Positions 9,813 through 33,899 of a DNA stretch of 41,474 nt are shown here, piece after piece. Position 1 is the first letter of the stretch. Every line of letters begins with the position of its first letter. Source of the DNA: Gammaproteobacteria bacterium (GTDB taxonomy: Bacteria; Pseudomonadota; Gammaproteobacteria; JAJDOJ01); the NCBI GenBank assembly GCA_027030565.1, contig JALVEU010000057.1, positions 1 through 41,474 of the forward strand, read 5' to 3'. A program made the position numbers and the translations under genes. The notes beneath the pieces are model-generated. The model was not told where the DNA came from and made no database searches. It saw only the letters and a program-made list of their open reading frames with translations.

Positions 9813-10096
9813 GCCCGATCACCCCGTCCGGTAGTCATGAGCCTCGGGATGACTGGCATGCCCCGTTGCGGCAGTCCCGCGTAGTCTCGGTAAGGCCGTC
9901 CACGAGTCCGCTTCGCAGCCAGCCGAAGAGGTCGCCGGCCTGCGCTTCGCGCACCAGGGCATCGACGGCGGGATGGAAGCGGTCGAGCGGCATGGGGGCA
10001 TTCTATCCGCACGCCGGCCCCGGCGTCGGACAAACGCCCCAGGCGGCACGACGAGGAGCGCTCCACGAAAGCGCGGGGACTCTAGAATCAGCTTCC

Positions 10097-11671: not shown

Positions 11672-11784
11672 GCGCTCATACTCCCACACGCACAGTCGCG
11701 AAACGCCGCGACTCGCGCCCCGCCGCAAGCCTTCGTCGAGACCCGTGAGCGTGGTCCATCCGCCCGGCCGCCAGCTCGGATCGC

Positions 11785-12807: not shown

Positions 12808-12895
12808 CTTCTGACTCCTGTTGCCGTGGTGCCCGCCCTCAGAAACGAACAGGCGGGCCGATACCGGGCTGCTGCATGCAAGGCCGGCAAGTGTT

Positions 12896-13933
12896 TCAGG
12901 ACCGTGTCGCCTCCAGCCTGCGGGCCGCGTAAACGGCCGGACCGTACAGCGCGGTGCGATCGTTGAGGATCACCTGCACCGGCACGCGCTCCAGCAACGG
13001 ACGCATGCGGCCCTTGTCGAGGAAGGCCTGTATAAAGCCGTCGTCTTGCAGGGCCCCGAGGATCTTCGGCGCGATGCCGCCACCCAGATACAGCCCGCCG
13101 GTGGCCATGTGCTTGAGCGCCAGGTTCCCGGCCTCGGCGCCGTAGAGGCGGACAAACAGCCCCAGGGCCTCGGCGCAAAGCCCATCGCGCCCTTCTTGGG
13201 CCGCACGGGAGATGGCCGCCGCCCCATCCCCGATGCGCATCTCCTCCTCCAGCCACTGGGGCATCGGGACGGCACGCTCTTCGCGCAGGAATGCATGGAT
13301 CGCCACGAGCCCCGGCCCGGAGAGGACCCGCTCCCAGCTGACGTGCCCATGGCGCGCACGCAGGAAGCGAAGGAGTGCGATCTCCAGGTCGCTGCCTGGC
13401 GCGAAATCCGCATGCCCGCCCTCAGTGGCGAAGGGGTGCCAGCCGCCCCGGTCCCTACAGATACCCGCCTCGCCGAGCCCGGTGCCTGCGGCGATGACCG
13501 CCGCGTTGCCCTCAGGGTCCGGATCCCCCTCGTGCAGGGTGTGCAGGTCTTCTGGCCCCAGGGCCTGTATCCCCCAGGCGTTGGCCTCCAGATCGTTCAG
13601 CAGGAAGACCCGATCAATGGAAAAGCGCTTGGCCAGTGCGTCGGCCTGCACCCGCCAGGGCAGATTGGTGGTGCGCGCCCGCCCGTCGCGCACCGGGCCC
13701 GCGATGCCGAAACAGGCGGCCTGCACGGACGCCGGATGGTCGCTGAAGAACACCGTGAGGATCGCCTCCAGGGAGGCATGGGCGGCACTTCGGTAGGTCG
13801 CCTCCACCACAGAATGCACCCTGGCACCGGCCACCTCCACCACGGCCAGGCGCGTCTTGGTTCCGCCGATGTCGCCGGCGAGCACGCGCACCGAATGGGA
13901 TCGTCTGGTATTCATGCCATCGCATCCTGCCAT
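12896..13933 (-). CDS. glk: Glucokinase
   Basis: 345 aa. VLAGDIGGTKTRLAV is the phosphate-1 motif. NDLEANAWG, AAGTGLGEA and GGLYLGGGIAPKI are typical bacterial Glk motifs. The start could also be ATG 13915. Confidence 0.88.
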   Translation of the reverse strand: MAGCDGMNTRRSHSVRVLAGDIGGTKTRLAVVEVAGARVHSVVEATYRSAAHASLEAILTVFFSDHPASVQAACFGIAGPVRDGRARTTNLPWRVQADALAKRFSIDRVFLLNDLEANAWGIQALGPEDLHTLHEGDPDPEGNAAVIAAGTGLGEAGICRDRGGWHPFATEGGHADFAPGSDLEIALLRFLRARHGHVSWERVLSGPGLVAIHAFLREERAVPMPQWLEEEMRIGDGAAAISRAAQEGRDGLCAEALGLFVRLYGAEAGNLALKHMATGGLYLGGGIAPKILGALQDDGFIQAFLDKGRMRPLLERVPVQVILNDRTALYGPAVYAARRLEATRS

Positions 13934-16275: not shown

Positions 16276-17055
16276 TCAGGCATGGGCCCCAATCACCTTA
16301 CCATCGATGAGCCAGCGTGCCATCAGCGCGGCGGCACGCTCGGGGACGTAGGCCTCGTCGATCCATTCCACCAGCCCGGCGCAGACCTCGGCGAAGGGCG
16401 CCCCCGCACGCATTCGGTCCAGCGCCCAGGCCTCGTCCACCTCCAGTGAGCGGAACCAGGTGCGCAGCTCGCGGCGCCAGATCACCCAGCCGACGGGATA
16501 GGGACCGCGCTCGGGGGCCACCGGCTCCCTTCCGTCGTCGATGGCCTGCCAGAGCTGCACCGTGTTCCATTGGAGATCCAGGCGCTGCACCGAGGGATGG
16601 AAGTCGAGTCGCAGCCCGGCCCAGGCCTGCGGTGGCAGGGCGGCCAGATCGGCCCGTGCCAGCGGTGCGGCATCGGCCGCGTCGAAGGCGTCGCGCAGCG
16701 CCCACTCGAAGGCGGCCATCTCGGCCAGGATCGGCTGCTCGCACCAGGGCGCACGTTCGGCCAGGTACGCAGCCAGGCGGTCGCCGAACCAGCGGATGGA
16801 GCGGTACGTGGAAGGGTGGGCCTCGATGTAGCTTCGCGCCAGGGCGTCGAAGCGGGCATCGCCGAGCAGCGTGTGTACCGCAGGATAACTGTCGGCCAGC
16901 GCCTCGGCGAGCCGCAGCCCATAGGCGTTGCGGTAGACCTCCAGCCGAGTCTGCAACGGCAGACGACCGTCGTCGGCCACGTCGGCGGCAAGCTCGGGAT
17001 CGCCCTGCAACAGCCAGCGCATGAACCGGCCCTGCAGTGCTGCGAGCTCAGACAT
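16276..17055 (-). CDS. DUF2063-family partner protein of MNIO maturases (BufC/HvfC type)
   Basis: Start at ATG 17055 (MSELAALQGRFMRWLLQG...), which overlaps the upstream stop in ATGTCTGA. LQTRLEVYRNAYGLRLAEAL...FDALARSYIEAHPS...IRWFG is the DUF2063 N-terminal signature. Confidence 0.8.
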   Translation of the reverse strand: MSELAALQGRFMRWLLQGDPELAADVADDGRLPLQTRLEVYRNAYGLRLAEALADSYPAVHTLLGDARFDALARSYIEAHPSTYRSIRWFGDRLAAYLAERAPWCEQPILAEMAAFEWALRDAFDAADAAPLARADLAALPPQAWAGLRLDFHPSVQRLDLQWNTVQLWQAIDDGREPVAPERGPYPVGWVIWRRELRTWFRSLEVDEAWALDRMRAGAPFAEVCAGLVEWIDEAYVPERAAALMARWLIDGKVIGAHA

Positions 17056-17893
17056 GGGCGGCGGCCTGGGCGCCTTCGGCGATCTCCCGCATCCGCTCCA
17101 CCTCCTCCATGAGCACCTCGAGCGGCGGGATGTCGGCATCGCGCTCGATCATGCACGAGACCGGCCCGAAACGCTGCACGGCCGCCTCGTAGAGGCGCCA
17201 CACCGGGTCGGGCACCGGGTGGTCGTGGGTGTCGATGACGTGATCCCCATAGTCCTGGTGGCCAGCCAGGTGGTGCTGTTGCACACGCTCGGCGGGCACG
17301 CCCGCCAGGTACTCCAGCGGATCGAAGCCGTGATTGCGGGCGCTCACGTAGATGTTGTTGATGTCGAGCAGGATCAGGCAGTCGGCCTCCTCGGCCACCG
17401 CGCCCAGGAATGCCCACTCGCTCATCTCCGAGCTGCGATAGCTCAGATACGAGGAGACGTTCTCGATCAGGATGCGCCGGCCCAGAAAGTCCTGCACCTG
17501 CCGGATGCGCCGCGCCACGTGCCGCACCGCCTCGCCGGTATACGGCAGTGGCAAGAGGTCGTGTGCATTGATGCCGCCGGCGCCGGTGAAGCAGAGATGG
17601 TCCGAGATCCACGCGGGCTCGATGCGCTCGACCAGCGCCTTGACCTGGCGCAGGTAGTCCCAGTCCAGTGGATCGGTGCCGCCCACCGAGAGCGACACCC
17701 CGTGGAGCACCACCGAATACCGGGCGCGCACCTGCTCGAGGAAGTGTAGGGGCTTGCCACCTGGGACCAGGTAATTCTCGGTGATGGCCTCGAACCAGTC
17801 GATCTGGGGAGGCTCATCCAGGATGGACTGGTAGTGCTCCTTGCGCAGGCCCAGGCCGATACCGAGATGGGGATAGGTGAGAGAAACCGTCAC
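17048..17893 (-). CDS. DUF692 / MNIO (multinuclear non-haem iron oxidative) peptide-modifying enzyme (BufB/HvfB/MbnB-like)
   Basis: The GTG at about 17893 gives VTVSLTYPHLGIGLGLRKEHY. WFEAITENY, VLHGVSLSVGG, ISDHLCFTG, ILIENVSSY and HLAGH.....IDTHDHPV form the TIM-barrel DUF692 motif series. The track ORF (to 18058) runs into the precursor gene and is trimmed. Confidence 0.88.
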   Translation of the reverse strand: MTVSLTYPHLGIGLGLRKEHYQSILDEPPQIDWFEAITENYLVPGGKPLHFLEQVRARYSVVLHGVSLSVGGTDPLDWDYLRQVKALVERIEPAWISDHLCFTGAGGINAHDLLPLPYTGEAVRHVARRIRQVQDFLGRRILIENVSSYLSYRSSEMSEWAFLGAVAEEADCLILLDINNIYVSARNHGFDPLEYLAGVPAERVQQHHLAGHQDYGDHVIDTHDHPVPDPVWRLYEAAVQRFGPVSCMIERDADIPPLEVLMEEVERMREIAEGAQAAAHV

Positions 17894-18388: not shown

Positions 18389-20407
18389 TCACGCCAGCCC
18401 CAGTGCGCGTCCCCCCTGATAGACCAGAAGGCTCGCCAGCCACGCCGACGTCAGCCCCAGGGTCACGCTCAGCAGCGTGACCCGCCAGCTGCGTGACTCG
18501 GCACGGATGGCCGCCACCGTGGCCACGCACGGCGTGTACAGCAGCACGAAGACCATGAAGCTGAGCGCACCCAGGGGTGTCATGCCTGCGGCCAGCGCCT
18601 GGCCGAGCTCTGCAGTGCCATAGATGACCGCCAGGGCCCCGATGACGATCTCCTTGGCGATGAATCCGAACAGCAGGGCCAGGGTCTCCTGCCAGTGGAT
18701 GCCCAGGGGCGCGAACACCGGAGCCAGCAGGTGACCGAGCCGTCCGGCCCAGGTACCGGGGCCGGCAGGCGGCTCGCCCGGCGGCAGGTGGGTGAGCAGC
18801 CAGACGACGATCACGCCGGCCAGGATCAGCGTGGCGGCCCGGTACAGGAAGTCCTTGAGCTCCTGCCAGCTGCGCAACAGCACCGTCCCAGGTGTCGGCA
18901 GGCGATACGGGGGAATCTCCATGATGAAGGGCTCGGGACGGCCTGCCAGGCGCAGGGCGCGCAGCACCAGCCCGATGCCCACCACGGCTGCGAAGCTCGC
19001 CGCATACAGCCCCAGGATCACCCACGGCGCGGTACGCGCGTCGAAGAAGATCGCCGCCAGGAACACGAACACCTGCAGCCGCGCGCTGCACAGGGTGAAG
19101 GGGATGAGCAGCATGGTGACGATGCGGTTGTACGGGCTGGAGAGGATGCGCGTGCCCATCACCGCCGGCACGTTGCAGCCGAAGCCCAGCAACAGGTTGA
19201 TGAAGGCCTTGCCGTCCAGGCCCAGCCCGTGCATGAGCCGGTCCATCAGAAAGGCGGCACGCGCCATGTAGCCGCTGTCCTCGACGAGGGACATGAGGAC
19301 GAAGAAGAGCACGATGATGGGAAAGAACGACAACACCACGCCCACCCCCTGCCACAGCCCGTCGATCACGAAGCTCTGCAGCCACCCTGGCAGGGACTGG
19401 AAGAGGCCTTGGGCCTGGATCCAGGCGGCCCCGGCCTCGAAACCGCGGGCCAGCAGGTCCTGCAGCGGTGTGCCCAGGCCGTAGATGAGCTGGAACAATC
19501 CCGCCATGACGAGCAGGAAGGCGGGCAGCCCGAGCCAGCGGTGCAACAGGATGCGATCGATGGCCTCGGAGCGTGGATCCGGCCCCGGGGGATGTCGCCG
19601 GGTCACCTCAAGCGCCAGTCCGCGGGCCGCATTGAACCGGCACTGGGCGCAGGTGACCGCCAGCGGGGCGTGGGTGAGCGCCTCGATGCGCCGCCGCCAG
19701 TCGGCGGCACGCTGCGCGAGCTCCGGCGATTCCGGCCGGCGGGGATCCTCCAGCATGCGCATGGCGACGAACGCCGGATTGAGTCGCCGCACCACGCCGG
19801 ACCGCTCCAGGCGTCGCGTCAGGTCCCGTACCGCCTCCTCCAGCACCGGCGGGCAGGGCAGATGCGGGGGACGTGTGGTCTCGGGGTGCCGGATGACGCG
19901 GTACAGGGTCTCCAGCAGCTCCGGAATCCCCTCGCCGGTGCGTGCGGAAATGCCCACCACCGGCACGCCCAGGTGCTCGGCCAACGCCTCCAGGTCCAAC
20001 CTCAGTCCCTGGGCTCGGGCCTCGTCCATCATGTTGACCGCCACCACCATGGGCAGCCCGCTCATGGCCATCTGCAGGGTGAGCCCCAGACCCCGGTACA
20101 GGTTGCGGGCGTCGAGCAGGTTCAGCACCACGTCCGGCGGGTCCTCGAGGAAGTAACGTGCGACGATCCGTTCTTCCTGGGTCGCCGGACTCAGCGAATA
20201 GGCCCCGGGCAGGTCCACCAGCTCCACGTCGTACTCGCCCAGGGTGAAGCGTCCGGTCTTGCGCTCCACCGACACCCCAGGCCAGTTCCCCGTGCTCTGG
20301 TTCGAAGCGGTGAGCCGATTGAACAGCGTGGTCTTGCCCGTGTTGGGAATGGCGCTCAGCGCCACGGTCACCCGATCAGTGGGCATCGGCGGGCTCCACG
20401 AGGACAC
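18389..20407 (-). CDS. feoB: Ferrous iron transporter FeoB (G-domain plus permease)
   Basis: 672 aa. G1 motif is [15 protein letters not shown], followed by DLPG, NMMD and a polytopic C-terminal permease. The real start may be the ATG at 20386 ([10 protein letters not shown]). Confidence 0.9.
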
Positions 20408-20867
20408 GCCGCGCCTCGCCCCGGCCCAGCGTCAGCGGGTCGCCACCCGCCAGGACCATCCGTGGTGCAGACGAAGCGCCGTCGAGCAGCCGCAGCACGG
20501 TGCCCGGCTGCAGGCCGCGGGCCCCCATGCGGATCCGCAGGGCCCGGCCGCCGGCGAAGCCGCGCACCCGCAGCGGGCGATCGCCGAACAGACGGGCATG
20601 GGACAGCGGCAGCACCAGCGGCTCGCAGTCCAGGGCCGCCAGCTCGCCGGACCGCAATGCCAGTCGCTGGCCGGGGTCCACCGCCAGCTCCACGGTCCCG
20701 CCGAGGGGCGCCACCCGGGTGACTTCGAGCGCCATACCCGGCAGGATCCCCATGCGTGAGAGCCGCTCGGCCAAGGCCGCGTCCCGGCCCAAGCCGCGGA
20801 TGCGGCACCGGCAGCCCGGCACGGGCGGACAGGACAGACGCACCCGATCGCCCCGCTGCCGCCTCAC
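20376..20867 (-). CDS. feoA: FeoA-family protein made of two tandem FeoA (SH3-like) domains
   Basis: Repeat 1: CRCRIRGLGRDAALAERLSRMGILPGMALEVTRVAPLGGTVELAVDPGQRLALRSGELAAL. Repeat 2: LRVRGFAGGRALRIRMGARGLQPGTVLRLLD....[21 protein letters not shown]. The start is uncertain: GTG at 20867 or 20843. The track start at 21023 looks too far upstream. Confidence 0.6.
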   Translation of the reverse strand: MRRQRGDRVRLSCPPVPGCRCRIRGLGRDAALAERLSRMGILPGMALEVTRVAPLGGTVELAVDPGQRLALRSGELAALDCEPLVLPLSHARLFGDRPLRVRGFAGGRALRIRMGARGLQPGTVLRLLDGASSAPRMVLAGGDPLTLGRGEARRVLVEPADAH

Positions 20868-23827: not shown

Positions 23828-25120
23828 TTGCCCCACCGTTCAGCAGCCCGTTCGCGGGCCGTACCGGCTCCCACGGACGCCGCCGACAGCGATCTCCTCG
23901 CCCGCTACCGGACCGTGCGGACCTGCACCGAGACCCTCTGTGCGCCGCTGGCCATCGAGGATCATTGCATCCAGACCATGCCGGACGTGAGTCCGCCCAA
24001 GTGGCATCTGGCGCACACCACCTGGTTCTTCGAGCAGTTCGTGCTGGTGCCGTATCAGGCGGGGTATTCGATCTTCGATCCGGCCTTCGACCATCTCTTC
24101 AATTCCTACTACCAGACCCATGGCCTGCCCTTCCCGCGCCCACAGCGCGGCCTGCTGGCGCGTCCGACGGTGGAGACGATCCTGCGCTATCGGGCCCATG
24201 TGGACGCGGCCATGGAGGCGCTGCTGAGTGACGCCGCGCTGCCTGGAGACGCGGCGTTCCGCACGGTGCTCGGCTGCCACCACGAGCAGCAGCACCAGGA
24301 GCTCCTGCTCACCGACATCAAGCACATCTTCGCCTTCAACCCGCTGCGCCCCGCCTATGTGGAGGGGGCCCCACCGGCAACCACGCGGGTCCCGGAGCTG
24401 AGCTGGGTGCCCTTCCGGGGCGGGATCGGTGAGATCGGGCACGCGGGCGGCGGCTTCGCCTACGACAACGAGACGCCGCGCCACCGGGTGCTCGTGGGCG
24501 ACTACGCCCTGGCGCAGCGCCCCGTGACCAACGGCGAGTACCTGGCGTTCATGGAGGACGGCGGCTACGCGCGGCCCGAGCTCTGGCTCTCCGACGGCTG
24601 GGCGACGATCCAGCGCGAGGGCTGGCAGGCGCCGCTGTACTGGGAACGGCAGGGTGAGGCCTGGTACGCCATGACGCTCGCGGGCCTGCACCCGGTGGAC
24701 CCCGATGCGGCGGTGTGCCACGTGAGCTTCTACGAGGCCGACGCCTATGCCCGCTGGGCCGGCGCGCGGCTGCCCACCGAGGCGGAGTGGGAGCTCGCCG
24801 CCGTGCGCCAGCAGGTGGCCGGCCGGCTCGCCGAGGACCACGCGGTGGCACCGGGAGGCAGCGACGACCAGGCGCCGCTGGCCCAGCTCTACGGCGACGT
24901 CTGGGAGTGGACGGCGAGTCCCTACGTCCCCTACCCCGGCTTTCGACCCCTGGCCGGGACCCTGGGCGAGTACAATGGCAAGTTCATGAACAGCCAGATG
25001 GTGCTGCGTGGCGGGTCCATCGCCACCCCAGCCGATCACATCCGGCCCACCTATCGCAACTTCTTCTATCCGGGAGACCGCTGGCAGTTCTCCGGGATCC
25101 GCCTGGCGAAGGACCTGTGA
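23828..25120 (+). CDS. egtB: Ergothioneine biosynthesis sulfoxide synthase EgtB (DinB-like plus FGE-sulfatase fold)
   Basis: LLARYRTVRTCTETLCAPL...PPKWHLAHTTWFFEQF...HHEQQHQELLLTD is the DinB_2 part. YAL...PVTNGEYLAFMEDGGY...AYARWAGARLPTEAEWE...GDVWEWTASPY...RGGS is the FGE part. The start is proposed at the in-frame TTG 23828, 4 nt after GGAGG, giving about 430 aa. The track ORF start at 23621 lies inside the REP block. Confidence 0.85.
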   Translation: MPHRSAARSRAVPAPTDAADSDLLARYRTVRTCTETLCAPLAIEDHCIQTMPDVSPPKWHLAHTTWFFEQFVLVPYQAGYSIFDPAFDHLFNSYYQTHGLPFPRPQRGLLARPTVETILRYRAHVDAAMEALLSDAALPGDAAFRTVLGCHHEQQHQELLLTDIKHIFAFNPLRPAYVEGAPPATTRVPELSWVPFRGGIGEIGHAGGGFAYDNETPRHRVLVGDYALAQRPVTNGEYLAFMEDGGYARPELWLSDGWATIQREGWQAPLYWERQGEAWYAMTLAGLHPVDPDAAVCHVSFYEADAYARWAGARLPTEAEWELAAVRQQVAGRLAEDHAVAPGGSDDQAPLAQLYGDVWEWTASPYVPYPGFRPLAGTLGEYNGKFMNSQMVLRGGSIATPADHIRPTYRNFFYPGDRWQFSGIRLAKDL

Positions 25121-26088
25121 GCCGGCCCGCCGTCCGCTTCTACGACGAGCACCCGGACCTCGCAGACCTGCGCGAGGAGGTGATCCGGGGGCTCTCCCAG
25201 CGACCGAAGTCGATTCCCCCCAAGTTCTTCTACGACGCCCGGGGATCGACCCTGTTCGACGCCATCTGCGATCAGCCCGAGTACTACCCCACCCGCACGG
25301 AGATGGCGATCCTGGCGCGGCACGCCGCCGAGATCGCCGCGGCCATCGGCCCCGAGGCCTGGCTCGTGGAGCTCGGCTGCGGCGCCAGCCGCAAGATCCG
25401 GCTGCTCCTGGAGGCCCTGCGGCCCCACGCCTGGGTGGGCGTGGACATCTCCCGCGACTTCCTGCGCGGCGCGGCCCAGACCCTGGCTTGCGAATATCCC
25501 TGGCTCGAGGTGCACGCCGTGTGCACCGATTTCTCGGAGCACCTGCACCTACCTCTGGTGGAGGCGGGCGGGCGGCGACGCGTGGCGTTCTTTCCCGGCT
25601 CCAGCATCGGCAACTTCGATCCGCCGCAGGCCGAACGCTTCCTGCGTGGCGTGGCCGAGGCCCTGGGCCGGGGCGGCGCACTGCTGATCGGCGTGGACCT
25701 GCAGAAGGATCCAGCCGTGCTGGACGCCGCCTACAACGATGCGGCCGGCGTCACGGCCGACTTCAACCGCAACCTGCTGGTGCGCATCCGCGACGAGCTG
25801 GGCGCCGACGTGGATCCCGAGGCCTTCGCCCACCGCGCCTTCTACGACGCCTGGCGCGGACGCGTCGAGATGCACCTGGTCAGCCTGCGCGCCCAGACCG
25901 TGCGACTGGATGGGCATCGGTTCCCGTTCCAGGCCGGAGAAACACTGCACACCGAAAATTCCTACAAATACACCCTGGACGGCTTCGAGCACCTGGCCCG
26001 ACGTGCCGGTTATCGCAGCCAACGCGTGTGGACCGACGAACGCGGCTGGTTCAGCGTGCACCTGCTCCAAGTCGTAGGCGGCCAATAA
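25117..26088 (+). CDS. egtD: L-histidine N-alpha-methyltransferase EgtD
   Basis: The GTG start overlaps the egtB stop (GTGA). IPPKFFYDARGSTLFDAICDQPEYYPTRTE, ELGCGASRKIRLLL, FFPGSSIGNF, YNDAAGVTADFNRNLL and HTENSYKY are EgtD signatures. Confidence 0.88.
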   Translation: MSRPAVRFYDEHPDLADLREEVIRGLSQRPKSIPPKFFYDARGSTLFDAICDQPEYYPTRTEMAILARHAAEIAAAIGPEAWLVELGCGASRKIRLLLEALRPHAWVGVDISRDFLRGAAQTLACEYPWLEVHAVCTDFSEHLHLPLVEAGGRRRVAFFPGSSIGNFDPPQAERFLRGVAEALGRGGALLIGVDLQKDPAVLDAAYNDAAGVTADFNRNLLVRIRDELGADVDPEAFAHRAFYDAWRGRVEMHLVSLRAQTVRLDGHRFPFQAGETLHTENSYKYTLDGFEHLARRAGYRSQRVWTDERGWFSVHLLQVVGGQ

Positions 26089-26129
26089 GAGCACATCCGA
26101 ACCACCCCGCTCGTCAAAACGAGCTGCGG

Positions 26130-26342
26130 GGCGGCGGTGTGCGAGAAGCGCGGCTCCACGGTCATCAGGCGCATGCCACAGGCCTTGGCGTCGGTGATGG
26201 CATGGTCCAACGAGCGCGCCCATTGCCCGGCCTCGAAGGGGTTGGCGCCCAGGGTGACGAGCAGCCGGGTGTGGTCCAGATCGGGCATGAAGGCGTACCC
26301 GCCCGAGGTGAGCTCGTCGGCCACGTGGCGGGCCGCCCGCAT
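26130..26342 (-). pseudogene. About 70-codon internal fragment of a molybdopterin (Mo/W-bisPGD) oxidoreductase catalytic subunit
   Basis: YAFMPDLDHTRLLVTLGANPFEAGQWARSLDHAITDAKACGMRLMTVEPRFSHTAA matches the conserved xxxGxNPxxxxP....I..AK..G.KLIVVDPRxTxTA block. Similarity stops after TAA, and the reading frame then runs into egtD. There is no N-terminal Fe-S or Tat part. The apparent ATG abuts the upstream stop (TGAATG). Confidence 0.4.
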
Positions 26343-28301
26343 TCAGGCCGGGGCGGAGGCGTCGGACAGCTCCGGCGTCAGGACCACGCGCGGAAAGGCC
26401 CCGATCACCTCGCGATAGACACGCGCCGGATCGTTCTCATAGCGCCTGGAGAAGTGGAAGGGCACGAGCCGGGCCACACCGGCGGCCGCAGCGATCTCGC
26501 CACAGGCCCGCGCCGTGAGATGGCCGGTGCGCCGGGCCTGGGCACGGTCGGCCCGCACGAAGGCGGCTTCACAGAACAGGGTGTGCGCCCGGTGGGCGAG
26601 ACGCTCCAGGCGCCCGCGGTTGTCCGGAGTGTCGGCCAGATCCGTGGCGTAGACCAGGCGTTTGCCGGGGCGGATCAGCACGAGATCCCGCGCCAGATCC
26701 CCCACCCGTTCCATGACGCCCGTGGGCAGGGTGATGCGCGCGCCGAGCGCATCGGCGTGGATGCGCCGCTTCAGCTCGCCCAGCCACGGCCCGGCTTCCA
26801 GGCCCCGGGCCGCGAGACGGTCCTTGCGCACGTTGATCTCGCGGGCGGGCTCGAGGGCGAAGGCCAGCACCGGCGTGTGATGATCGAGCAGGGCCGCACG
26901 CACCCGAAACCCCGGCTCGTCCAGCAGCACACCGGACGCATCGGGCGCGGTGCGCAGGGCCACGGGGCCGTCACGACCGGCCTGGAGCTGGAACACGTAG
27001 CGCAGGGCACCGTCCCACTCGGTCACGATAAAACGCGGCCCGCGGTCCCCGATCCGGTCCCAGAGGATGCCGCGCAGGAAGCCGGCGAGATGGTCGGCGA
27101 GCCCGGGTGGACCGTAGAGCCGGCAGGGCTCGGTGAGGCCGATGCGGGCGCGCAGGAGCCAGAGGAAGCCCGCAATGTGGTCGAAGTGGGCATGGGAGAC
27201 GAATACATCGGTGAGGCGGTGGGCCACCCGGGCGGGCAACCGCGCCCCCTCCCCCAGGTCGAAGAGCAGCCGACGCCCCTGGTGCACCAGGCGCAGGTGC
27301 AGGCAGGGATCACCGAACACGCCGTTGACCAGGTTCGCCTCTACGTGCCCCACTCGCAGGGCGAGAGGCCGCGGTGTTTCCACCTTCGCGGGCGATGCCA
27401 GTCCTTCGGGAAGCACGTCGATCGGCTCGGTGCAACCTTCGGCGAAGGGCTCCAGAGTGGTCAAGAAACCGCTCTCGTCGCGCGCCGCATCGCGCACCAG
27501 GAGGGTGTCGGCATCGGCGGGCAGGGATGGTGCACGCAGCTCCAGCCGGTCTCCTTCCACCGCCACTACCTCGCCCATCGCCCGCGTCCGGCCGCGCGAA
27601 AGGAGGGCCACCTGCCGGCCGGTCCAGGCCTCCGGCACGTCCAGCGGAGGCGGCGTCCCGGTGAGGTGCCAGCGCCCGAGCTCGATCCGCTGTGCCGTGG
27701 CACGCTCCAGGTAGCGGTCCCAGAGCATGGTGCGCTCACGCAGACGCTGGCGCAGACCCGGGCGCCGGGCACGCGGATCGCGCGGGATCCGAAGCACCGG
27801 GAGACCCAGCGCCGCGAGTTCCTGCTCCAGCGTCACCACACCGGCGGCTCCCCCCAGCACCAGGACCACCTCTGCCGAGACGGCCTCGGCCGTTGCCGTC
27901 AAGAGCTCGGCCGCCGCCACCCCGCGCACCACCCCCGGTGGATCGACCACGAGTGTTGCGGGCGGGATCGTTCGCAGCAGCCGTTCCATGGCCGCCACCA
28001 GCGGCAGGCGGAATCGCGCCGCATTCAGGGAACACAGGGCCTCCATCCCTTCCAGCCGCCATGCGCCGTGATCCCAGCGGCCCAGACACACTGCGCCGGG
28101 AACGCCGAAGGGCGGGGAGCCTGGATCTGCACTCAAGCAGTAGACGGCCTCATGCCCGTGCGACAACACGCCGCCCAGACGCTGGGCCAGGGTCGACTTG
28201 CCCGCCCCGGGCGGACCGGACAGGAGGATGCGCCGGCGGCCACGCAGGGCCTGCACCACGGCGTCCAAGGTGGCGGCGACCTCCGGCTTCATCGCCGCCA
28301 C
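26343..28301 (-). CDS. Fusion protein: N-terminal Clp1/Grc3-type P-loop polynucleotide-kinase-like domain plus C-terminal RNase Z-like metallo-beta-lactamase domain
   Basis: 652 aa. The Walker A is ILLSGPPGAGKSTLAQRL, followed by CLSADPGSPPFGVPGAV and LVVDPPGVVRG, which is the Clp1_P pattern (DxDxGQ-like, DTPG-like). The C-terminal part has FDLGEG...VFVSHAHFDHIAGF (HxHxDH)...LDHHTPVLAF...YATD...LFCEAAF...GHLTA...LVPFHFSRRY. Confidence 0.8.
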   Translation of the reverse strand: MAAMKPEVAATLDAVVQALRGRRRILLSGPPGAGKSTLAQRLGGVLSHGHEAVYCLSADPGSPPFGVPGAVCLGRWDHGAWRLEGMEALCSLNAARFRLPLVAAMERLLRTIPPATLVVDPPGVVRGVAAAELLTATAEAVSAEVVLVLGGAAGVVTLEQELAALGLPVLRIPRDPRARRPGLRQRLRERTMLWDRYLERATAQRIELGRWHLTGTPPPLDVPEAWTGRQVALLSRGRTRAMGEVVAVEGDRLELRAPSLPADADTLLVRDAARDESGFLTTLEPFAEGCTEPIDVLPEGLASPAKVETPRPLALRVGHVEANLVNGVFGDPCLHLRLVHQGRRLLFDLGEGARLPARVAHRLTDVFVSHAHFDHIAGFLWLLRARIGLTEPCRLYGPPGLADHLAGFLRGILWDRIGDRGPRFIVTEWDGALRYVFQLQAGRDGPVALRTAPDASGVLLDEPGFRVRAALLDHHTPVLAFALEPAREINVRKDRLAARGLEAGPWLGELKRRIHADALGARITLPTGVMERVGDLARDLVLIRPGKRLVYATDLADTPDNRGRLERLAHRAHTLFCEAAFVRADRAQARRTGHLTARACGEIAAAAGVARLVPFHFSRRYENDPARVYREVIGAFPRVVLTPELSDASAPA

Positions 28302-28578
28302 CCCCCTGCATGGCCCCCTGCCCTAGACCTCGGGCACGCCGGCAGCCTGCAGGGCTGCCGGGTGGCGGCTACACTCCTTGTGGGAGGGCACGTACCATGG
28401 CCGACCCGAGCGACCTTGAAACAGGCCTTGCTCACGTGGATCCCGTTCCTGCGCATTTCATCCATTCCGTATCCCCTTGGGCACTCGAAGAGGCGCAACG
28501 CTCGAGGCCGCGCGAGCAGGCGCGCCCCTCCGGGCCGCTCGATTCGGGCTCCAGCGGGCCTTCGCGCCACGAGGCTAC

Positions 28579-28881
28579 ATGGTCTGCCTGGTGCATTACG
28601 CCGACGGCTCCACGGGTGTGCTCCTGTATCTGAAGACCGCGCTCATCACTCAGGTGAGCTTTGCGGTCAAAGGCTATGCGGCGCTGAACCCCGACTTCCC
28701 GGATCAGAGCACGGTGGATCAGTTCTTCGACGAGGTGCAGTTCGAAGCATATCGTGCGCTCGGCTACCGCGTGGCGAGTCGGATGCTGGACGACCCGGTC
28801 CCGCAGGCATGCTTGCGCGGGCTCGACGTGGACCCGCTCCCCCAACACATACAAGGGCTCATCGAGCATCTGACGGCCTGA
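28579..28881 (+). pseudogene. Orphan 100-codon ORF resembling the extreme C-terminus of large patatin-like phospholipase-family proteins (probable remnant)
   Basis: ...LYLKTALITQVSFAVKGYAALNPDFPDQSTVDQFFDEVQFEAYRALGYRVA resembles the FP(H/D)xST.DQFF.E.QFE.YR.LG tail that I recall from patatin-like proteins. No catalytic domain lies upstream, and the upstream frames are broken. Confidence 0.3.
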
Positions 28882-29000
28882 CCCGGCAGTGGCCTGCACC
28901 CGAACAATCCACCTGGGCGGTGCGCGGAACCTATTTCCACAACCACGACGTGGTAGGATGGCCCCGTGGCCGCCCCCCGACCCGCGACGGAGGTTTCCCC

Positions 29001-29237
29001 ATGAGCGACATCCCACTGGTCGACGTCACCCTGCATATCGACGAGACGCTGGACAAGGCGAAGCGTGCAGAGATCGAAGAACGGCTGCGCGCGCTGGACG
29101 GGGTGATCAGCGTGCATTCGCCGGACGACAAACCGCATCTGGCCATCGTCGAATACAATCCCGACCGGCTGAACTCGGCACGGATCCTGGAGACGGTCAC
29201 CCGCCAAGGGGTGCATGCCGAGCTCGTGGGATTGTAA
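29001..29237 (+). CDS. Small ferredoxin-fold (HMA-like) protein lacking the CxxC metal site
   Basis: This is the last 78 codons of a 1409-aa shadow ORF. ATG 29001 follows GGAGG. The sequence MSDIPLVDVTLHIDETLDKAKRAEIEERLRALDGVISVHSPDDKPHLAIVEYNPDRLNSARILETVTRQGVHAELVGL has a beta-alpha-beta-beta-alpha-beta periodicity and no Cys. Confidence 0.6.
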   Translation: MSDIPLVDVTLHIDETLDKAKRAEIEERLRALDGVISVHSPDDKPHLAIVEYNPDRLNSARILETVTRQGVHAELVGL

Positions 29238-29274: not shown

Positions 29275-29871
29275 TCACTCCCGTTCCACGACGCCCGCGT
29301 AATAGGCAGCGACGGATTCGATCTCGGCCTCGCTGAGCTTCGCCGCGATGCCCGGCATGGGTCCGAGACCCGGACGACCCCGGCGCCCCGATCGCCAGGC
29401 GCGGAGCTGGCGGGCGAGGTATCGGGCCGGCTGCCCAACCAGCACGGGAATGTCCTCACCTCTGAGTCGGGCGGCGGGGGCATGGCAGGCATCGCAGGGC
29501 GCCAAGCCGCGTGTCGGGTCGCCCGAGCGGGCCAGGCGCTTGCCCGAGCCCGCGGGCAACACGGCCGCCGGCGGCGTGGGCAGCGCCGCGTAGTGGCCGG
29601 CCAAGGCCTCCCCGTCCTCCGGCCCGAGCAGCTCCGCCACCGGACTCATCAACGGGCTGGTCCGCTCACCGGAACGGAACGCCTCGAGCTGGCGTTCGAG
29701 ATACCGCGCAGGGAGGCCCGCCAGACGGGGGATGCCGGCGTGCGCATCGCCACGACCGCCCTCACCGTGACAACCATCGCAGAAACCCGGATCCCGCAGC
29801 GCGGAGGCCGACAACGGCAGCAGGGTCGCGACCCCAACCACCAATATCGCCCTGCGCGCGGCGCGTTCCAT
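29275..29871 (-). CDS. Dihaem c-type cytochrome (c4-like), periplasmic
   Basis: Start at ATG 29871 (MERAARRAILVVGVATLLPLSASA signal). Two CxxCH sites are present (CDGCHG, CDACHA), each followed by P.L.GQ...Y...QL..(F/W)RSG, the typical c4/c553 pattern. Confidence 0.8.
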   Translation of the reverse strand: MERAARRAILVVGVATLLPLSASALRDPGFCDGCHGEGGRGDAHAGIPRLAGLPARYLERQLEAFRSGERTSPLMSPVAELLGPEDGEALAGHYAALPTPPAAVLPAGSGKRLARSGDPTRGLAPCDACHAPAARLRGEDIPVLVGQPARYLARQLRAWRSGRRGRPGLGPMPGIAAKLSEAEIESVAAYYAGVVERE

Positions 29872-29996
29872 GACCTGAGAGTCTGGCCCCGCAGCACCGC
29901 CAAGGCAAGGCGCGGATGCCTGGTTGCGTCTGGAATGCATCTCGACCACCCACGGAGCCGCACGAGAACGGTCCGCCGCACCGGAGGGAGACACCC

Positions 29997-31145
29997 GTGA
30001 ACCGTCAGCAAGCCATGGCGATTTCGCATCGCATCCGCAGCACCTGCGTCCTGCTCGCCGTGCTCTTGGCCGGCTGTGCCGATCATCAAGACCAGAGCCC
30101 GCCACCCGGTCGCCCCGACTGGGCGCACATCAAGGCCCACGCCAAACCGCAGCTCGTGCTCGCCGATGAATTCTCCACCCCCGTGCTCCTGAAACCTCCG
30201 GCGAGCCCGGCCTGGGAAGACGGCATCTTCATCAGCCGGGACGGCCTCCGCCTCTACGCCTTCTATTCACCGGCCGACGTGTACCAGTATGCGGTGAACA
30301 CGGCCGGGCAAACCGGCTGCATCGACATCACCCCCTATTTACGCGGCCCCCGGCTCGGCATGGATCTCCAAACCAACCCGTGGGGTTGCGACAAGGTGCT
30401 CCACAGCGACATCGCCTATGCCACACGCGACTCCACCAGCCGACCGTTTGGACCTTGGCGCCTGTCGAACATGGCCGCGCCGCTCACCTGGGAAGGTGGG
30501 TTCCAGGCCATGGACAACGGCGATGGCGCCATCGATGCCGTCCTCTCGAGATCGACCGACGAGCGCAAGAACGACCTGTACTGGGCACGGGGCGTCTCGC
30601 ACAATCCCCCCTTGAGCGCATTTGCACCGATGCCCGACCCGATCAACTCCCCGTCCCAGGAGGACAATCCCCATCTGGAGCGGCTCGACGACACGACCCT
30701 GGTATTGCTCTTCGACAACCATGGCCAGGGCGATTCCAGAACGACCATCCGATACGCCATGAGCCATGACGACGGCGTCCACTGGACCCCGCCTGCCGCG
30801 CTGGGCGCCAACATCAACGCGGGCCCCCACGATCTCACCGGGCATCTGTACTTCGATGGCGACGAGTGGTGGCTGTACTTTGCCTCCGAGCGCGACGGTG
30901 CGCTGGCCATCTACCGCAGTTTGCATCAGACGGGCGACCTCATCGCCGACTTCGACGACTGGGGACCGGCTCAGCTCGTCGTCGCCCCGGGTCCGGTGGA
31001 CGATGGCTCGGGATTCATGTCCGGCGTCGGCGAGCCCTCGCTCACCAGCCGTGGGGATCTCGTCTTCGCCGCGGTCTATGGCGCCAGCAACCCGACGCCC
31101 TTTGACGCCTCCGACATCGATGCGTGGATCGCGATGCGCAAGTGA
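29997..31145 (+). CDS. Lipoprotein, probable beta-propeller (BNR/sialidase- or TolB-like) fold
   Basis: GTG 29997 lies 9 nt after GGAGGGAG (alternative ATG 30015). The lipobox is VLLAVLLAGC. Repeated strand-rich motifs include RDGLRLYAFYS, DDGVHWTPP (BNR-like SxDxGxTW variant) and DEWWLYFASERDG. Confidence 0.6.
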   Translation: MNRQQAMAISHRIRSTCVLLAVLLAGCADHQDQSPPPGRPDWAHIKAHAKPQLVLADEFSTPVLLKPPASPAWEDGIFISRDGLRLYAFYSPADVYQYAVNTAGQTGCIDITPYLRGPRLGMDLQTNPWGCDKVLHSDIAYATRDSTSRPFGPWRLSNMAAPLTWEGGFQAMDNGDGAIDAVLSRSTDERKNDLYWARGVSHNPPLSAFAPMPDPINSPSQEDNPHLERLDDTTLVLLFDNHGQGDSRTTIRYAMSHDDGVHWTPPAALGANINAGPHDLTGHLYFDGDEWWLYFASERDGALAIYRSLHQTGDLIADFDDWGPAQLVVAPGPVDDGSGFMSGVGEPSLTSRGDLVFAAVYGASNPTPFDASDIDAWIAMRK

Positions 31146-31418
31146 AGCGCCAGGGAAAGGCCCGTCGAGCGAGGTGGAGGCAGCGCAAGGCACACCCAAC
31201 CACGGAATGCAGGGCCCGTCCGCCGAGAGCCGCCACTGAACGCGTCGGCAGGCACCTGCATGGAACCGACCGCTGCGCCTGCCCGGGGTTGCGGGCGTCG
31301 AGATGGAGGCGATCCTTGAGCCAGCTCATGTCACGCCGTCGATGCGATCGCACACAATTGGCGGCGGACTGATCGGCACTTCCTCGACGTCAAGGCGCAG
31401 CCAAAGGGGGATTCTTCC

Positions 31419-33173
31419 ATGTTCGGCCCCGGACAGAAGCGTGACACGGCCCGATCCCGTTCTCTACACCAAGCGGCCCTCGGGGTGGTGCTTGGTGTCC
31501 TCGCCGCAGCAGGCCTGCGCGTGACGTCTGCGGAACCGGCGCCTGCGGCATCCATGGCGGCGGTGGAGGGCCCCGCTTCCGAGCGGATCGAGCTGGGCAT
31601 CCGGGAATACGACGTGACGGCCAGAAAACGGCCCGTGGACAAATCGGTGACACGCCTGCTGGAGAAACCGGAGGACACCTCCACCACCGACCACAGCGAG
31701 CTGGACGAGCTGCAGGGCCCCTTCCACAGTGGCCCCGAGGTGACCAAGGCCTGCCTGGAGTGCCACAACAAGGCGGGGAAGCAGTTCCGAAAAAACATCC
31801 ACTGGACCTGGCGCTGGCACAACCCGCGCACCGGCCAGGAGTTGGGCAAGGCGCTCCTGGTCAACAATTTCTGCACCAACGCCGCCGGCAACGAAGGCAT
31901 GTGCGCCCAGTGTCACGCCGGCTACGGCATGACCGACGCCCGTACCTACGACTTCTCCAACGAGGAGAACATCGACTGTCTCGTCTGCCACGAATCCACG
32001 GGCACCTATTACAAACTGCCGCCCACGCGGGGCAACAAGGCCTGTGCGGTGATGTTCGAGGGCAAACCCCCCATCGATTGGACCCGGGTGGCGCAGAGTG
32101 TGACCCTGCCGGGACGAAACAACTGTGGGGCCTGCCACTTCTTCGGTGGCGGCGGGGACAACGTGAAGCACGGAGACCTCTCCTCGGTGCTCTTCAATCC
32201 ACCCAAGGACGTCGACGTCCACATGTCCCCACAGGGCGAGAACTTCGCCTGCATCATCTGCCATGTGGGCGAAGGCCACAAATGGGCCGGCAGCCGTTAC
32301 GCCCCCCTGGCCAAGGATCCCGGTGAGACCAAACCCGGCCTGCCGCGGCACACCGCCACCTGTGAGAGCTGTCATACCCACGAGCCTCATCCCCTGGGGC
32401 TCATGGGACTCAAGCTCAACGATCACACCGACCGCGTGGCCTGTCCCACCTGTCATGTCCCCGCCTTCGCCCGGGGAGGCGTCGCCACCAAGGTCCACTG
32501 GGACTGGCGCACGGCGGGCCGACTCCGAAACGGAGAGGGATACCGTGAAGAGGGCTACATCCAGGGCAACGGAGAGCCTCGCCACACCTACAAGTCCATC
32601 AAGGGCAGCTTCAAGTATGGCGAGAACCTGGTACCGGAATACCACTGGTTCAACGGCGTCGAGCGGTACATCACGGTGCACGACCGGTTCGATCCCTCCA
32701 AGCCCGTGGAGATCAACCACCTGGAAGGCGGCCCCGACGACCCGAACGCACGCATCTGGCCCTTCAAGCGCATGGTCACCATCCAGCCCTATGACAAGGG
32801 CAACAACACACTGGTCTACATGCACCTCTGGGGCGACGACGAAGACGCGTTCTGGGGGAACTACGACTTCGCCCGCGCCATCCGCCGCGGTATGGCGGAC
32901 TTCGGACTGCCCTACTCCGGCGAGTACGGATTCATCGAGACCTGGTCCTACTGGCCCATCGTCCACATGGTGGCGCCCAAGGAGGACGCCCTGGCCTGCC
33001 GAGACTGCCACGCCCGCCAGGGACGGCTGAAGGACCTGGCCGGTTTCTACATGCCCGGTCGGGACTACAACCCCTGGGTGGACCGGATCGGGATCGCCGT
33101 GGTGCTGGCGACGCTGCTCGGTGTACTGGGCCACGGCTTGCTGCGCGTGGTTCTGGCCGCTAGACGGAGGTGA
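31419..33173 (+). CDS. Octahaem c-type cytochrome of the tetrathionate-reductase (OTR) family, with N-terminal signal and C-terminal TM helix
   Basis: There are eight CxxCH motifs: CLECH, CAQCH, CLVCH, CGACH, CIICH, CESCH, CPTCH, CRDCH. The context matches OTR (HWTWRW, GGGGDNVKHGDL, HWDWRT). The C-terminus IGIAVVLATLLGVLGHGLLRVVL is hydrophobic. Confidence 0.88.
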   Translation: MFGPGQKRDTARSRSLHQAALGVVLGVLAAAGLRVTSAEPAPAASMAAVEGPASERIELGIREYDVTARKRPVDKSVTRLLEKPEDTSTTDHSELDELQGPFHSGPEVTKACLECHNKAGKQFRKNIHWTWRWHNPRTGQELGKALLVNNFCTNAAGNEGMCAQCHAGYGMTDARTYDFSNEENIDCLVCHESTGTYYKLPPTRGNKACAVMFEGKPPIDWTRVAQSVTLPGRNNCGACHFFGGGGDNVKHGDLSSVLFNPPKDVDVHMSPQGENFACIICHVGEGHKWAGSRYAPLAKDPGETKPGLPRHTATCESCHTHEPHPLGLMGLKLNDHTDRVACPTCHVPAFARGGVATKVHWDWRTAGRLRNGEGYREEGYIQGNGEPRHTYKSIKGSFKYGENLVPEYHWFNGVERYITVHDRFDPSKPVEINHLEGGPDDPNARIWPFKRMVTIQPYDKGNNTLVYMHLWGDDEDAFWGNYDFARAIRRGMADFGLPYSGEYGFIETWSYWPIVHMVAPKEDALACRDCHARQGRLKDLAGFYMPGRDYNPWVDRIGIAVVLATLLGVLGHGLLRVVLAARRR

Positions 33174-33178
33174 GTCGG

Positions 33179-33835
33179 ATGAGCATACACAAGGTCCGCG
33201 TCTTCACACGCTTCGAGCGGTTCTGGCACTGGACCCAGGCCCTGCTCATCTTCGTGCTCCTGTTCTCGGGCTTCTCCATCCACGGCCTGATCCCCGGCAT
33301 CGATTTCGAAAAGCTGGTCTGGACGCACGTGGGCGCCGCGGTGGGCCTCATGGTGCTGTGGGTATTCGCCATCTTTTGGCATCTCACTACTGGCAACTGG
33401 CGTCACTACGTGCCCACCGTCAACGGCCTGTTCCGGGTGGCGCGTTACTACGCCTGGGGCATCTTCCGGGGCGAGGACCACCCCTATCGCAAGCGTTTCT
33501 GGCACAAGCACAACCCGCTGCAGGCACTGGCCTATCTGGGCCTCAAGCTGGGCCTGTTCCCGGTCCTGTGGGCCACCGGGCTGGCCTATCTGTTCTACGG
33601 ATTCTGGGGACAAGGCGCACTGACGGCCGGCTCGCTGGAATGGATCGCCGTCACGCACACGCTGTTCGCCTTTTTCATGGCCGCCTTCGTGATCATCCAC
33701 GTCTACCTGCTCACCACGGGCGAGTCCTTCGTCGAGCATGTCAAACCCATGATCACAGGCTACGACAAGGTGGAGCTCACCGAGGCGGAGCTCGCGTACC
33801 TGAAAGAGGACGAACCGGACCGCGTGCTGGACTGA
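33179..33835 (+). CDS. Membrane b-type cytochrome (Ni/Fe-hydrogenase/PhsC-like cytochrome b561 family)
   Basis: ATG 33179 lies 8 nt after GGAGG (the track start is GTG 33170). FERFWHWTQALLIFVLLFSG carries a haem-ligand His. There are four TM helices, with further His in WHLTTGNW and FVIIHVYL. The start abuts or overlaps the OTR stop. Confidence 0.8.
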   Translation: MSIHKVRVFTRFERFWHWTQALLIFVLLFSGFSIHGLIPGIDFEKLVWTHVGAAVGLMVLWVFAIFWHLTTGNWRHYVPTVNGLFRVARYYAWGIFRGEDHPYRKRFWHKHNPLQALAYLGLKLGLFPVLWATGLAYLFYGFWGQGALTAGSLEWIAVTHTLFAFFMAAFVIIHVYLLTTGESFVEHVKPMITGYDKVELTEAELAYLKEDEPDRVLD

Positions 33836-33899
33836 GGCGGCCCACGCGCAGAACGATCCCACCCCCGGAAACCGGTCCAGCGTACACATTAGCGCACGC

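Follow-up and report, generated by a model that had tools for sequence, protein, structure and literature searches.

A Clp1-type kinase domain fused to an RNase Z-type domain in Proteobacteria: a candidate bifunctional RNA end-healing enzyme

We analyzed a stretch of 41,474 nucleotides from a Gammaproteobacteria bacterium (contig JALVEU010000057.1 of assembly GCA_027030565.1), in the following referred to as the window, and found that the gene at positions 26343-28301 of the minus strand encodes a Clp1-type P-loop polynucleotide-kinase domain joined to a metallo-beta-lactamase (MBL) domain of the RNase Z type. With moderate confidence we propose from the sequence and the predicted fold that this fusion protein is a bifunctional RNA end-healing enzyme for tRNA-like substrates, which combines a putative Clp1 5'-OH kinase with a putative short-form RNase Z-type zinc phosphodiesterase. 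The gene is a single intact and uninterrupted open reading frame (ORF) of 652 codons that begins with GTG. Translation from the ATG of codon 4 (position 28292) yields a product of 649 amino acids (aa), which is the version chosen by the metagenome gene caller. The gene call on the metagenome contig ENA ERZ27262687 k141_95287 (P0001) is 100% identical to the window protein; here and below, P-numbers denote proteins and L-numbers denote loci that were recovered as relatives in the searches. An initial annotation of the window had quoted short motif strings for a kinase joined to a nuclease, and all of them are present in the translated ORF: GPPGAGKST at residues 29-37, ADPGSPPFGVPG at residues 58-69, VVDPPG at residues 118-123 and HAHFDH at residues 370-375.

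The kinase domain comprises residues ~20-198 (27708..28244; like all parts of the fusion gene described here, on the minus strand). The Pfam model CLP1_P (PF16575) matches residues 29-198 over positions 1-186 of its 188 with 41.6 bits, which lies above the gathering cutoff of 26.6, and the same match is precomputed in all 120 relatives listed. For structural comparison we used an AlphaFold2 (AF2) model that was built on 26 family members and reached a mean predicted local distance difference test (pLDDT) score of 83.6. Foldseek matched the N-terminal half of this model to human CLP1 from the TSEN complex (8hmy_E, E = 4e-12) and to Clp1 of Caenorhabditis elegans (4oi0, E = 5e-12) as well as to Grc3 (6of2_B and 8puw_B); E-values of the Clp1 and Grc3 matches ranged from 4e-12 to 1e-7, and these were the sole P-loop NTPases among the best 50 matches listed. 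A sequence profile of the N-terminal half found mostly P-loop-only matches in the PDB, such as midasin and ArsA. Therefore, the assignment to Clp1 rests on the full-domain hidden Markov model and on the fold search, which together rule out a generic AAA/ABC NTPase. The Clp1-type P-loop domain named in the initial annotation is thereby borne out. Its pattern had been called typical of eukaryal and archaeal kinases, but it is not restricted to them, as Ts-Clp1 of Thermus scotoductus is a proven bacterial RNA 5'-kinase that prefers RNA (PMC6777427).

Residue conservation was computed on 26 family members, each 52-60% identical to the window protein. The Walker A motif or P-loop (GxxxxGK[S/T]; G29-PPGAGK35-S36, 28194..28217) is present, with G29, G32, G34 and K35 invariant and S36 conserved in at least 90% of the members. 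The same is true for the arginine-rich lid (RxxxxR; R180-PG-x-R184-x-R186-xxx-R190, 27732..27764), in which R186 and R190 are invariant and R180 and R184 reach at least 90%. Over the whole kinase domain the mean pairwise identity amounts to 59.9%, with 40 invariant residues.

Between the kinase and the nuclease domain lies a region of ~140 aa that had initially been described as uncharacterised. It can be divided into two parts. Residues 199-283 (27453..27707) form a small beta-barrel domain with seven strands, which the AF2 models predict with pLDDT >90. When this beta-domain was compared with the PDB by itself, the top six matches were all Clp1, although weak (E = 5e-3 to 3e-2), and Clp1-like proteins of 275-292 aa that occur in bacteria as stand-alone proteins (P0256, P0261, P0263, P0268 and P0269) align throughout it. 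This part is the native C-terminal beta-domain of a bacterial-type Clp1; its mean pairwise identity is 49.4%. The remaining residues 284-319 (27345..27452) are an inter-domain linker with low pLDDT, none of whose 36 positions is invariant (mean pairwise identity 45.9%). The protein is thus laid out as a complete bacterial-type Clp1, followed by a flexible linker of ~35 aa and a short-form RNase Z.

The C-terminal half (residues 320-641, 26379..27344) is matched by Pfam Lactamase_B_2 (58 bits) and Lactamase_B. Best among the family models is NF002558 (PRK02126, 'ribonuclease Z'), whose profile positions 5-337 of 345 align to the entire domain with an E-value of 2e-83. Judged by such profile matches, this half is predicted to be a divergent relative of RNase Z, with a clear match that stays below the curated threshold. 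A phmmer search of the PDB pointed in the same direction and returned human ELAC1 (3zwf, E = 2.8e-12) and E. coli RNase Z/BN (2cbn, E = 1.3e-11). In Foldseek, the C-terminal half likewise matched 2cbn (E = 7e-18) as well as the RNase Z-tRNA complexes of Bacillus subtilis (2fk6 and 4gcw) at a target-normalised TM-score of ~0.73. With 91 of its 322 residues invariant and a mean pairwise identity of 65.9%, the RNase Z domain is the more conserved half, and together with the value for the kinase domain this shows that both enzymatic halves, unlike the linker, are under strong constraint.

The catalytic motifs of the nuclease half are intact. Zinc-binding motif II (H370-A-H372-F-D374-H375, 27177..27194) is invariant in the family, and so are H474 (motif III), D554 (motif IV), the HST-type loop H594-L-T596 and H616 (motif V), all of which lie within 26454..26882. 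This means that each of the predicted zinc ligands H370, H372, D374, H375, H474, D554 and H616 is invariant, and that H594-L-T596 aligns with the GHST of ELAC1 and of E. coli RNase Z. Moreover, the domain contains the flexible arm that serves as tRNA exosite (residues ~488-535, 26697..26840). In the PDB sequence search the arm segment GLEAGPWLGELK aligned to GVPPGPAYGKLK of ELAC1, and the model folds it into a helix, a GP loop, a second helix and a hairpin. Within the arm, R492, K493, G504, W506, L507, L510, K511 and P526 are invariant, residues 504-506 being the G-P-W motif.

These features bear on two other functions that could be considered for the protein. A small-molecule phosphodiesterase joined to a kinase, for instance in PhnP-like cyclic phosphodiester or cyclic-nucleotide metabolism, would fit weak partial matches of NCBIfam models for GntH and for a phosphodiesterase that degrades cyclic nucleotides (26.9 bits, cutoff 400), and the initial annotation had placed the C-terminal half in an 'RNase Z/PhnP' type. 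However, no PhnP family is among the best 25 NCBIfam matches listed, in which RNase Z models dominate with E-values down to 2e-83. In addition, the domain has an invariant flexible arm, an element that serves to bind a macromolecule, tRNA, and there are no phosphonate genes near the fusion. We consider this function extremely improbable, and of the two enzyme types originally named only RNase Z, supported by NF002558, ELAC1 and the arm, is retained. Very improbable, too, is a role in DNA end processing, in which a PNKP-like kinase would act on 5'-OH DNA and the MBL domain would trim blocked 3' ends during strand-break repair. The nuclease half is of the RNase Z type and carries the arm for tRNA. 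Every one of its best matches belongs to the RNase Z/ELAC family and none to the DNA-repair nucleases, and DNA-repair genes do not recur near the fusion. The preference of Ts-Clp1 for RNA argues in the same direction (PMC6777427).

The fused architecture is a property of the whole family. A full-length query retrieved 1352 proteins at E <=1e-5 among 8000 candidates scored, a number that includes MBL-only relatives. All of the 120 matches listed are 623-715 aa long, cover 93-99% of the query and contain both Pfam domains. When the N-terminal 320 residues alone were searched exhaustively, only 279 representatives remained after clustering at 50%, and 67 of these reached E <=1e-30. The family is thus compact, with complete members of ~620-700 aa, and a metagenome scan with peptide patterns specific for the N-terminal half confirmed at least 346 stretches. 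The full-length fused ORF is present in 74 of the 93 related loci, which form 54 groups at 85% identity; most of the other loci break off near a contig edge. The hosts comprise at least Gammaproteobacteria, Betaproteobacteria and one Desulfobulbaceae metagenome-assembled genome, and include at least Nitrosomonas spp., Methylomarinum, Acidiferrobacterales, Chromatiaceae, Thiohalobacter, Thioalkalivibrio, Halospina denitrificans and Pseudomonadales. Among the Proteobacteria, sulfur oxidisers, ammonia oxidisers and methanotrophs commonly carry a member of the family. With 74 full-length loci in several proteobacterial lineages and more than 100 full-length relatives listed, an assembly or frameshift artefact and a fusion specific to one strain are both ruled out. 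Neither bacterial Clp1 nor RNase Z is new by itself, and the fused family sits in databases under generic names: source annotations of the listed relatives vary between 'ribonuclease Z/BN', 'MBL fold metallo-hydrolase' and 'Clp1/GlmU family protein'.

Several further proteins (P0124, P0130 and P0137) of ~300 aa consist of the Clp1 and beta-domain half only and end in the linker region. They are 43-47% identical to the N-terminal half of the window protein and may be contig-end truncations or truly split genes.

A link between both halves was also found outside the fusion. In the loci L101-L103 a stand-alone Clp1 (P0263) lies 777 bp from a stand-alone RNase Z of the NF002558 type (370 bits). 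P0263 shares 33% identity with the N-terminal half of the fusion (BLASTP over 153 residues), and the RNase Z of L101 is 41% identical to the C-terminal half (E = 7e-61). These unfused neighbours are a Rosetta-stone case that connects the two domain families. For the surroundings of the fusion itself, neighbours within 6 kb were clustered in the 54 groups, of which only ~20-34 had useful flanks. In three groups the RNA ligase RtcB and archease are encoded 2-5 kb from the fusion (L040 11611-13498, L043 126-2015 and L095 1-1249), and the three fusion members concerned are only 54-57% identical to each other. Moreover, in L013 (Desulfuromonadaceae) a gene for a ThpR/LigT RNA 2',3'-cyclic phosphodiesterase (TIGR02258, 159 bits; 9137-9949) directly precedes that of a stand-alone NF002558 member (9977-11077), and RtcB is encoded 1.2 kb away on the opposite strand (12215-13672). 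The whole stretch of 9137-13672 is a possible RNA-repair cluster around an unfused nuclease.

According to two reports, short-form RNase Z (tRNase ZS/ELAC1, rice TMS5) strips the 2',3'-cyclic phosphate off CCA-less tRNAs and thereby enables re-addition of CCA (10.1101/2021.08.05.455008; PMC11897441). We propose that the RNase Z half of the fusion, which is probably a homodimer like other RNase Z enzymes, would bind the elbow and the acceptor region of tRNA or of a tRNA-like RNA via the flexible arm. Its di-zinc site would remove extra or damaged 3' material, be it a trailer or a 2',3'-cyclic phosphate, and leave a 3'-OH. The Clp1 half would convert a 5'-OH to a 5'-phosphate at the expense of a nucleoside triphosphate (NTP). 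Toxins, anticodon nucleases and other metal-independent ribonucleases leave 5'-OH and 2',3'-cyclic-phosphate ends, and acting together, both halves would turn these into 5'-P and 3'-OH ends. Ends healed in this way could be passed to the CCA-adding enzyme or to a 5'-P/3'-OH ligase for rebuilding, or they could enter decay that depends on 5'-P or 3'-OH. The domain identities, the invariant catalytic residues and GP arm, the L101-L103 pair, the RtcB/archease and L013 associations and the precedents of Ts-Clp1, ELAC1 and TMS5 are consistent with such healing, in our judgement to an extent that leaves the balance about even. A more specific form of it, which we regard as rather unlikely, would be a bacterial enzyme of a hitherto unrecognised type that is dedicated to the end repair or recycling of tRNA; the arm would dock on ribotoxin-nicked or 3'-damaged tRNAs and both termini would be healed in one binding event, on a 5'-P/3'-OH repair route parallel to RtcB or gating it.

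Several observations weigh against end healing, and they concern the motifs, the reaction chemistry and the genomic surroundings. In the kinase half, the Walker B equivalent (A58-D59-P-G-S62, 28116..28130) has an invariant D59 but reads D-P-G-S, in which a Ser conserved in at least 90% of the members replaces the Gln of the [D/E]hhQ consensus; stand-alone bacterial Clp1 relatives retain this Gln (DADPGQ or DADVGQ). The clasp-equivalent motif (D120-x-P122-G123-V124-x-R126-G127, 27921..27944) likewise departs from the [T/S/L]xGW definition, as the fusion family shows PGVxRG without the Trp. Both consensus motifs are those given for the Clp1 family in PMC6777427. In the nuclease half, the NF002558 score of 280.2 bits stays below the curated cutoff of 315, and the other RNase Z models are missed by far (TIGR02651 with 102 bits against 293, NF000801 with 92 against 252). 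Canonical RNase Z carries a PxKxRN loop, or motif I, at its N-terminal edge. In place of this loop, residues 324-335 of the fusion read L-V-N-G-V-F-G-D-P-x-L-H, and the LVNGxxGDP variant is common to the fusion family and the stand-alone NF002558 member in L101.

The altered kinase motifs are what a different division of labour would build on. The protein could be an RNase Z-type nuclease for tRNA or RNA 3' processing, whose Clp1 module does not phosphorylate but serves as an NTP-binding regulator, scaffold or RNA binder. Two of the four kinase motif positions are non-canonical (DPGS for DhhQ and PGVxRG for [T/S/L]xGW), the kinase half is less well conserved than the RNase Z half, and yeast Clp1 binds ATP without kinase activity, the loss of which in Saccharomyces cerevisiae has been noted (PMC6777427). 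Nevertheless, the family shows little or no variation at the Lys and Ser of Walker A, the Asp of Walker B and the four arginines of the lid. Moreover, the clasp Trp is also missing in the stand-alone bacterial Clp1-like relatives, which have S/T-x-G-L/F at this position. We hold a non-catalytic Clp1 module to be unlikely.

With regard to the chemistry, MBL nucleases leave 5'-P and 3'-OH ends. Since cleavage by an RNase Z thus yields a 5'-P, the kinase cannot use the products of its own nuclease half. It must take ends made by another nuclease, which favours healing over a self-contained machine that cuts and marks. RtcB joins a 3'-P or a cyclic phosphate to a 5'-OH end. As this requirement is the opposite one, the fusion protein would compete with RtcB or substitute for it and would not feed it; in addition, RtcB and archease occur in only three of the 54 groups, and no ligase is conserved at the fusion loci.

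The same considerations apply to an RNA maturation or decay machine in the style of Las1-Grc3 or TSEN-Clp1, which would cut and phosphorylate a specific rRNA, tRNA or mRNA precursor and in which the 5'-OH end would be marked for decay or maturation and not for repair. The lack of a ligase conserved beside the fusion agrees with this idea, and kinases of the Clp1 family repeatedly pair with endonucleases (Grc3 with Las1, PMC5900568, 6of2 and 8puw; CLP1 with TSEN, 8hmy). However, an MBL nuclease that leaves 5'-P and 3'-OH cannot supply the substrate of the kinase, unlike Las1 and TSEN. We rate such a machine as quite unlikely. As the 5'-OH ends must come from another enzyme, it collapses into that branch of the end-healing proposal in which healed ends are destined for decay.

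In part, the genomic surroundings of the fusion also speak against the end-healing proposal. Usually, the fusion gene is its own transcription unit in a variable environment. Among the 54 groups (6 kb) we found only partial associations in place of a conserved operon partner, and neither an RNA ligase nor any other partner was consistently linked to the fusion. The pairing of unfused Clp1 and RNase Z was seen in one of ~7 stand-alone Clp1 contexts and did not recur in the six others. The two most frequent neighbours have no obvious role in RNA metabolism. One is a CapA/PGA_cap-like protein of ~406 aa with a metallophosphoesterase fold, which is encoded in 8-9 groups and often adjacent (L001 4902-6122, L010 4909-6132, L041 1322-2599, L044 2038-3261, L073 8760-9407 and others). 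The one N-terminus inspected, that of the L001 copy (MKRRDFLK...), has a Tat-type signal, so that this protein is probably exported. The other is a CheR-family methyltransferase of 271 aa (PF01739) in seven groups, often adjacent to or overlapping the fusion in differing orientations (L001 7014-7832, L003 9977-10792, L031 3205-4038, L051 270-1106, L059 3993-4649, L095 1810-2625 and L002 13416-14231). The copies are 40-47% identical to each other, one of the genes overlaps the stop codon of the fusion, and in L003 the gene of a methyl-accepting chemotaxis protein comes after it. The CheR-like gene may encode a partner of the Hen1 kind, or it may be a chemotaxis gene that lies there by coincidence.

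Four groups contain a 90-aa ORF directly beside the fusion (L001 10105-10377, L031 6192-6464, L051 1179-1433 and L095 2769-3032). It has no match in Pfam, NCBIfam, PADLOC or PHROG. All four also carry the CheR-like gene, which suggests a three-gene module of fusion, CheR-like gene and 90-aa ORF in part of the family. In the rather unlikely case of a dedicated tRNA repair enzyme, the CheR-like methyltransferase and the 90-aa protein might be accessory factors in some lineages, possibly analogous to Hen1 in Pnkp/Hen1 repair. Members that share any one partner are 54-58% identical to each other, compared with a family median of 53%. As the partner-bearing members are as diverged as the family overall, the associations are not single synteny blocks. 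Near the fusion gene of the window itself, none of the four recurrent partners (CapA-like, CheR-like, 90-aa ORF and RtcB/archease) is present.

In the window, the fusion gene is solitary, as had been described initially; it converges with egtD and diverges from a small ORF. The search for promoter and terminator consensus sites around it gave none, and the whole window contains no tRNA or Rfam element. On both sides the gene is flanked by gene remnants, and this earlier observation could be specified. The downstream remnant (26130..26288, minus strand, in a 110-aa ORF at 26010-26342) is an internal fragment of ~53 residues of a molybdopterin oxidoreductase; it matches residues 214-264 of the 949 of FdhA in the PDB (E = 0.011) and residues ~167-223 of a plasmid-borne molybdopterin-dependent oxidoreductase of 728 aa (E = 4e-3). 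The upstream remnant (28546..28878, plus strand, in the ORF 28477-28881) represents the very C-terminal end of a gene for a patatin-like phospholipase. This ORF matches only the last ~70-100 residues of such proteins (40 plasmid records, best E = 2e-13), corresponding to residues ~806-865 of an 879-aa homologue. The two remnants derive from different genes and indicate a past deletion or local rearrangement at this site. The initial annotation had taken them as a sign of acquisition by insertion, a view that found no support. The GC content is continuous with that of the neighbours without a step at the fusion gene, repeats bounding the gene were limited to short direct or inverted matches at chance level, and no mobility genes are among the gene calls of the window. 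Plasmid and phage searches found no homologue of the fusion, and no PADLOC or PHROG family matches it. None of these results supports a mobile-element origin.

Further genes of the window were noted alongside. Convergent on the fusion gene lies a pair of the ergothioneine biosynthesis type at 23828-26088 (plus strand), which consists of an EgtB-like protein (DinB_2 and FGE-sulfatase) and EgtD (Methyltransf_33, 386 bits). The open frame of 1409 codons that spans the entire fusion gene in antisense (25008-29237, plus strand) does not represent a gene but an artefact typical of high-GC DNA. Gene calling accepted no more of it than the last 78 codons (29001-29237), and their product has no family match. 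A redox cluster at 29275-33839 comprises a di-haem cytochrome c (29275-30105, minus strand), a 409-aa protein with a weak BNR-like match, a multi-haem cytochrome of ~540-584 aa (31419-33173, plus strand) and a cytochrome b (Ni_hydr_CYTB, ~33183-33839). In addition, a gene of the MbnB/TglH/ChrH family (DUF692; ~17048-17893, minus strand) adjoins an HvfC_N-domain gene (ORF below 17055), and feoA-feoB are found at ~18389-20753 according to contig gene calls mapped to window coordinates.

Comparison with known systems places the fusion between several enzyme families. Full-text literature searches, which did not cover the survey by Burroughs and Aravind of 2016 (PMC5062991), returned no description or characterisation of a Clp1-RNase Z fusion, in agreement with the initial statement that no characterised bacterial protein is known to have this architecture. 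The main text of the study on Ts-Clp1 is silent on a fusion to a lactamase or RNase Z domain, and its Supplementary Figure S3 includes a protein of the Clp1 family from Nitrosomonas sp. Nm166, in which the fusion is present (P0092). According to the same study, Clp1 is present in <1% of complete bacterial genomes, and an enzyme activity but no cellular function has been reported (PMC6777427). Like Ts-Clp1 and the stand-alone proteins P0256, P0261, P0263, P0268 and P0269, the fusion has a short N-terminus, a CLP1_P domain and a small beta-domain. The stand-alone proteins of 275-292 aa share with it the Walker A motif, a DPG-type Walker B region and the arginine-rich lid, neither has the clasp Trp, and the N-terminal 283 residues of the fusion are 26-30% identical to them in a multiple alignment. 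In contrast to them, the fusion has Ser for Gln in Walker B, the PGVxRG clasp and a covalent RNase Z domain.

The C-terminal half resembles the stand-alone NF002558 (PRK02126) proteins in the LVNGxxGDP N-terminus, in all metal ligands and in the GPW flexible arm. It differs from them in its score below the cutoff (280 against 315) and in being joined to Clp1. For the NF002558 subfamily we found no biochemical characterisation, so that its name 'ribonuclease Z' is an annotation only. With ELAC1/tRNase ZS and rice TMS5 the fusion has the fold, the metal site and the aligned GP motif of the flexible arm in common. Those enzymes, however, are eukaryotic, stand-alone and kinase-free, and the similarity is remote (E = 2.8e-12; 17-19% identity in Foldseek). 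Las1-Grc3/Nol9 and TSEN-CLP1 are similar in that they physically join a kinase of the Clp1 family with an RNA endonuclease (6of2, 8puw, 8hmy; PMC5900568). Unlike the fusion, both are non-covalent complexes whose HEPN or TSEN nucleases make the 5'-OH substrate of the kinase.

Phage T4 Pnkp, bacterial Pnkp (with Hen1) and HD-Pnk are bifunctional RNA end-healing enzymes. The same holds for the kinase-cyclic phosphodiesterase modules of fungal and plant Trl1 (PMC5824351). The predicted logic of the fusion is alike, since a 5'-OH kinase and a 3'-end phosphoesterase in one polypeptide would convert 5'-OH/2',3'>P to 5'-P/3'-OH ends. However, both modules are of unrelated fold: the kinase is of the Clp1 and not of the T4-Pnk type, and the 3' module is an RNase Z-type MBL domain, whereas the known healing enzymes use a DxDxT phosphatase or a calcineurin-type, HD or 2H domain. 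The fusion also lacks a fused or consistently adjacent ligase, and its tRNA-binding arm suggests a built-in substrate targeting. If both activities are real, the family would represent a new solution for RNA end healing with folds unlike those of every characterised healing enzyme and its own tRNA-docking arm. Bacterial Clp1 would then gain a cellular role, and the tRNA 3'-end repair of short-form RNase Z would extend to bacteria. This could bear on how sulfur-oxidising, ammonia-oxidising and methanotrophic Proteobacteria survive tRNA cleavage induced by ribotoxins or stress. Compared with the characterised end-healing enzymes, the fusion is a new combination of predicted folds with a putative tRNA targeting built in.

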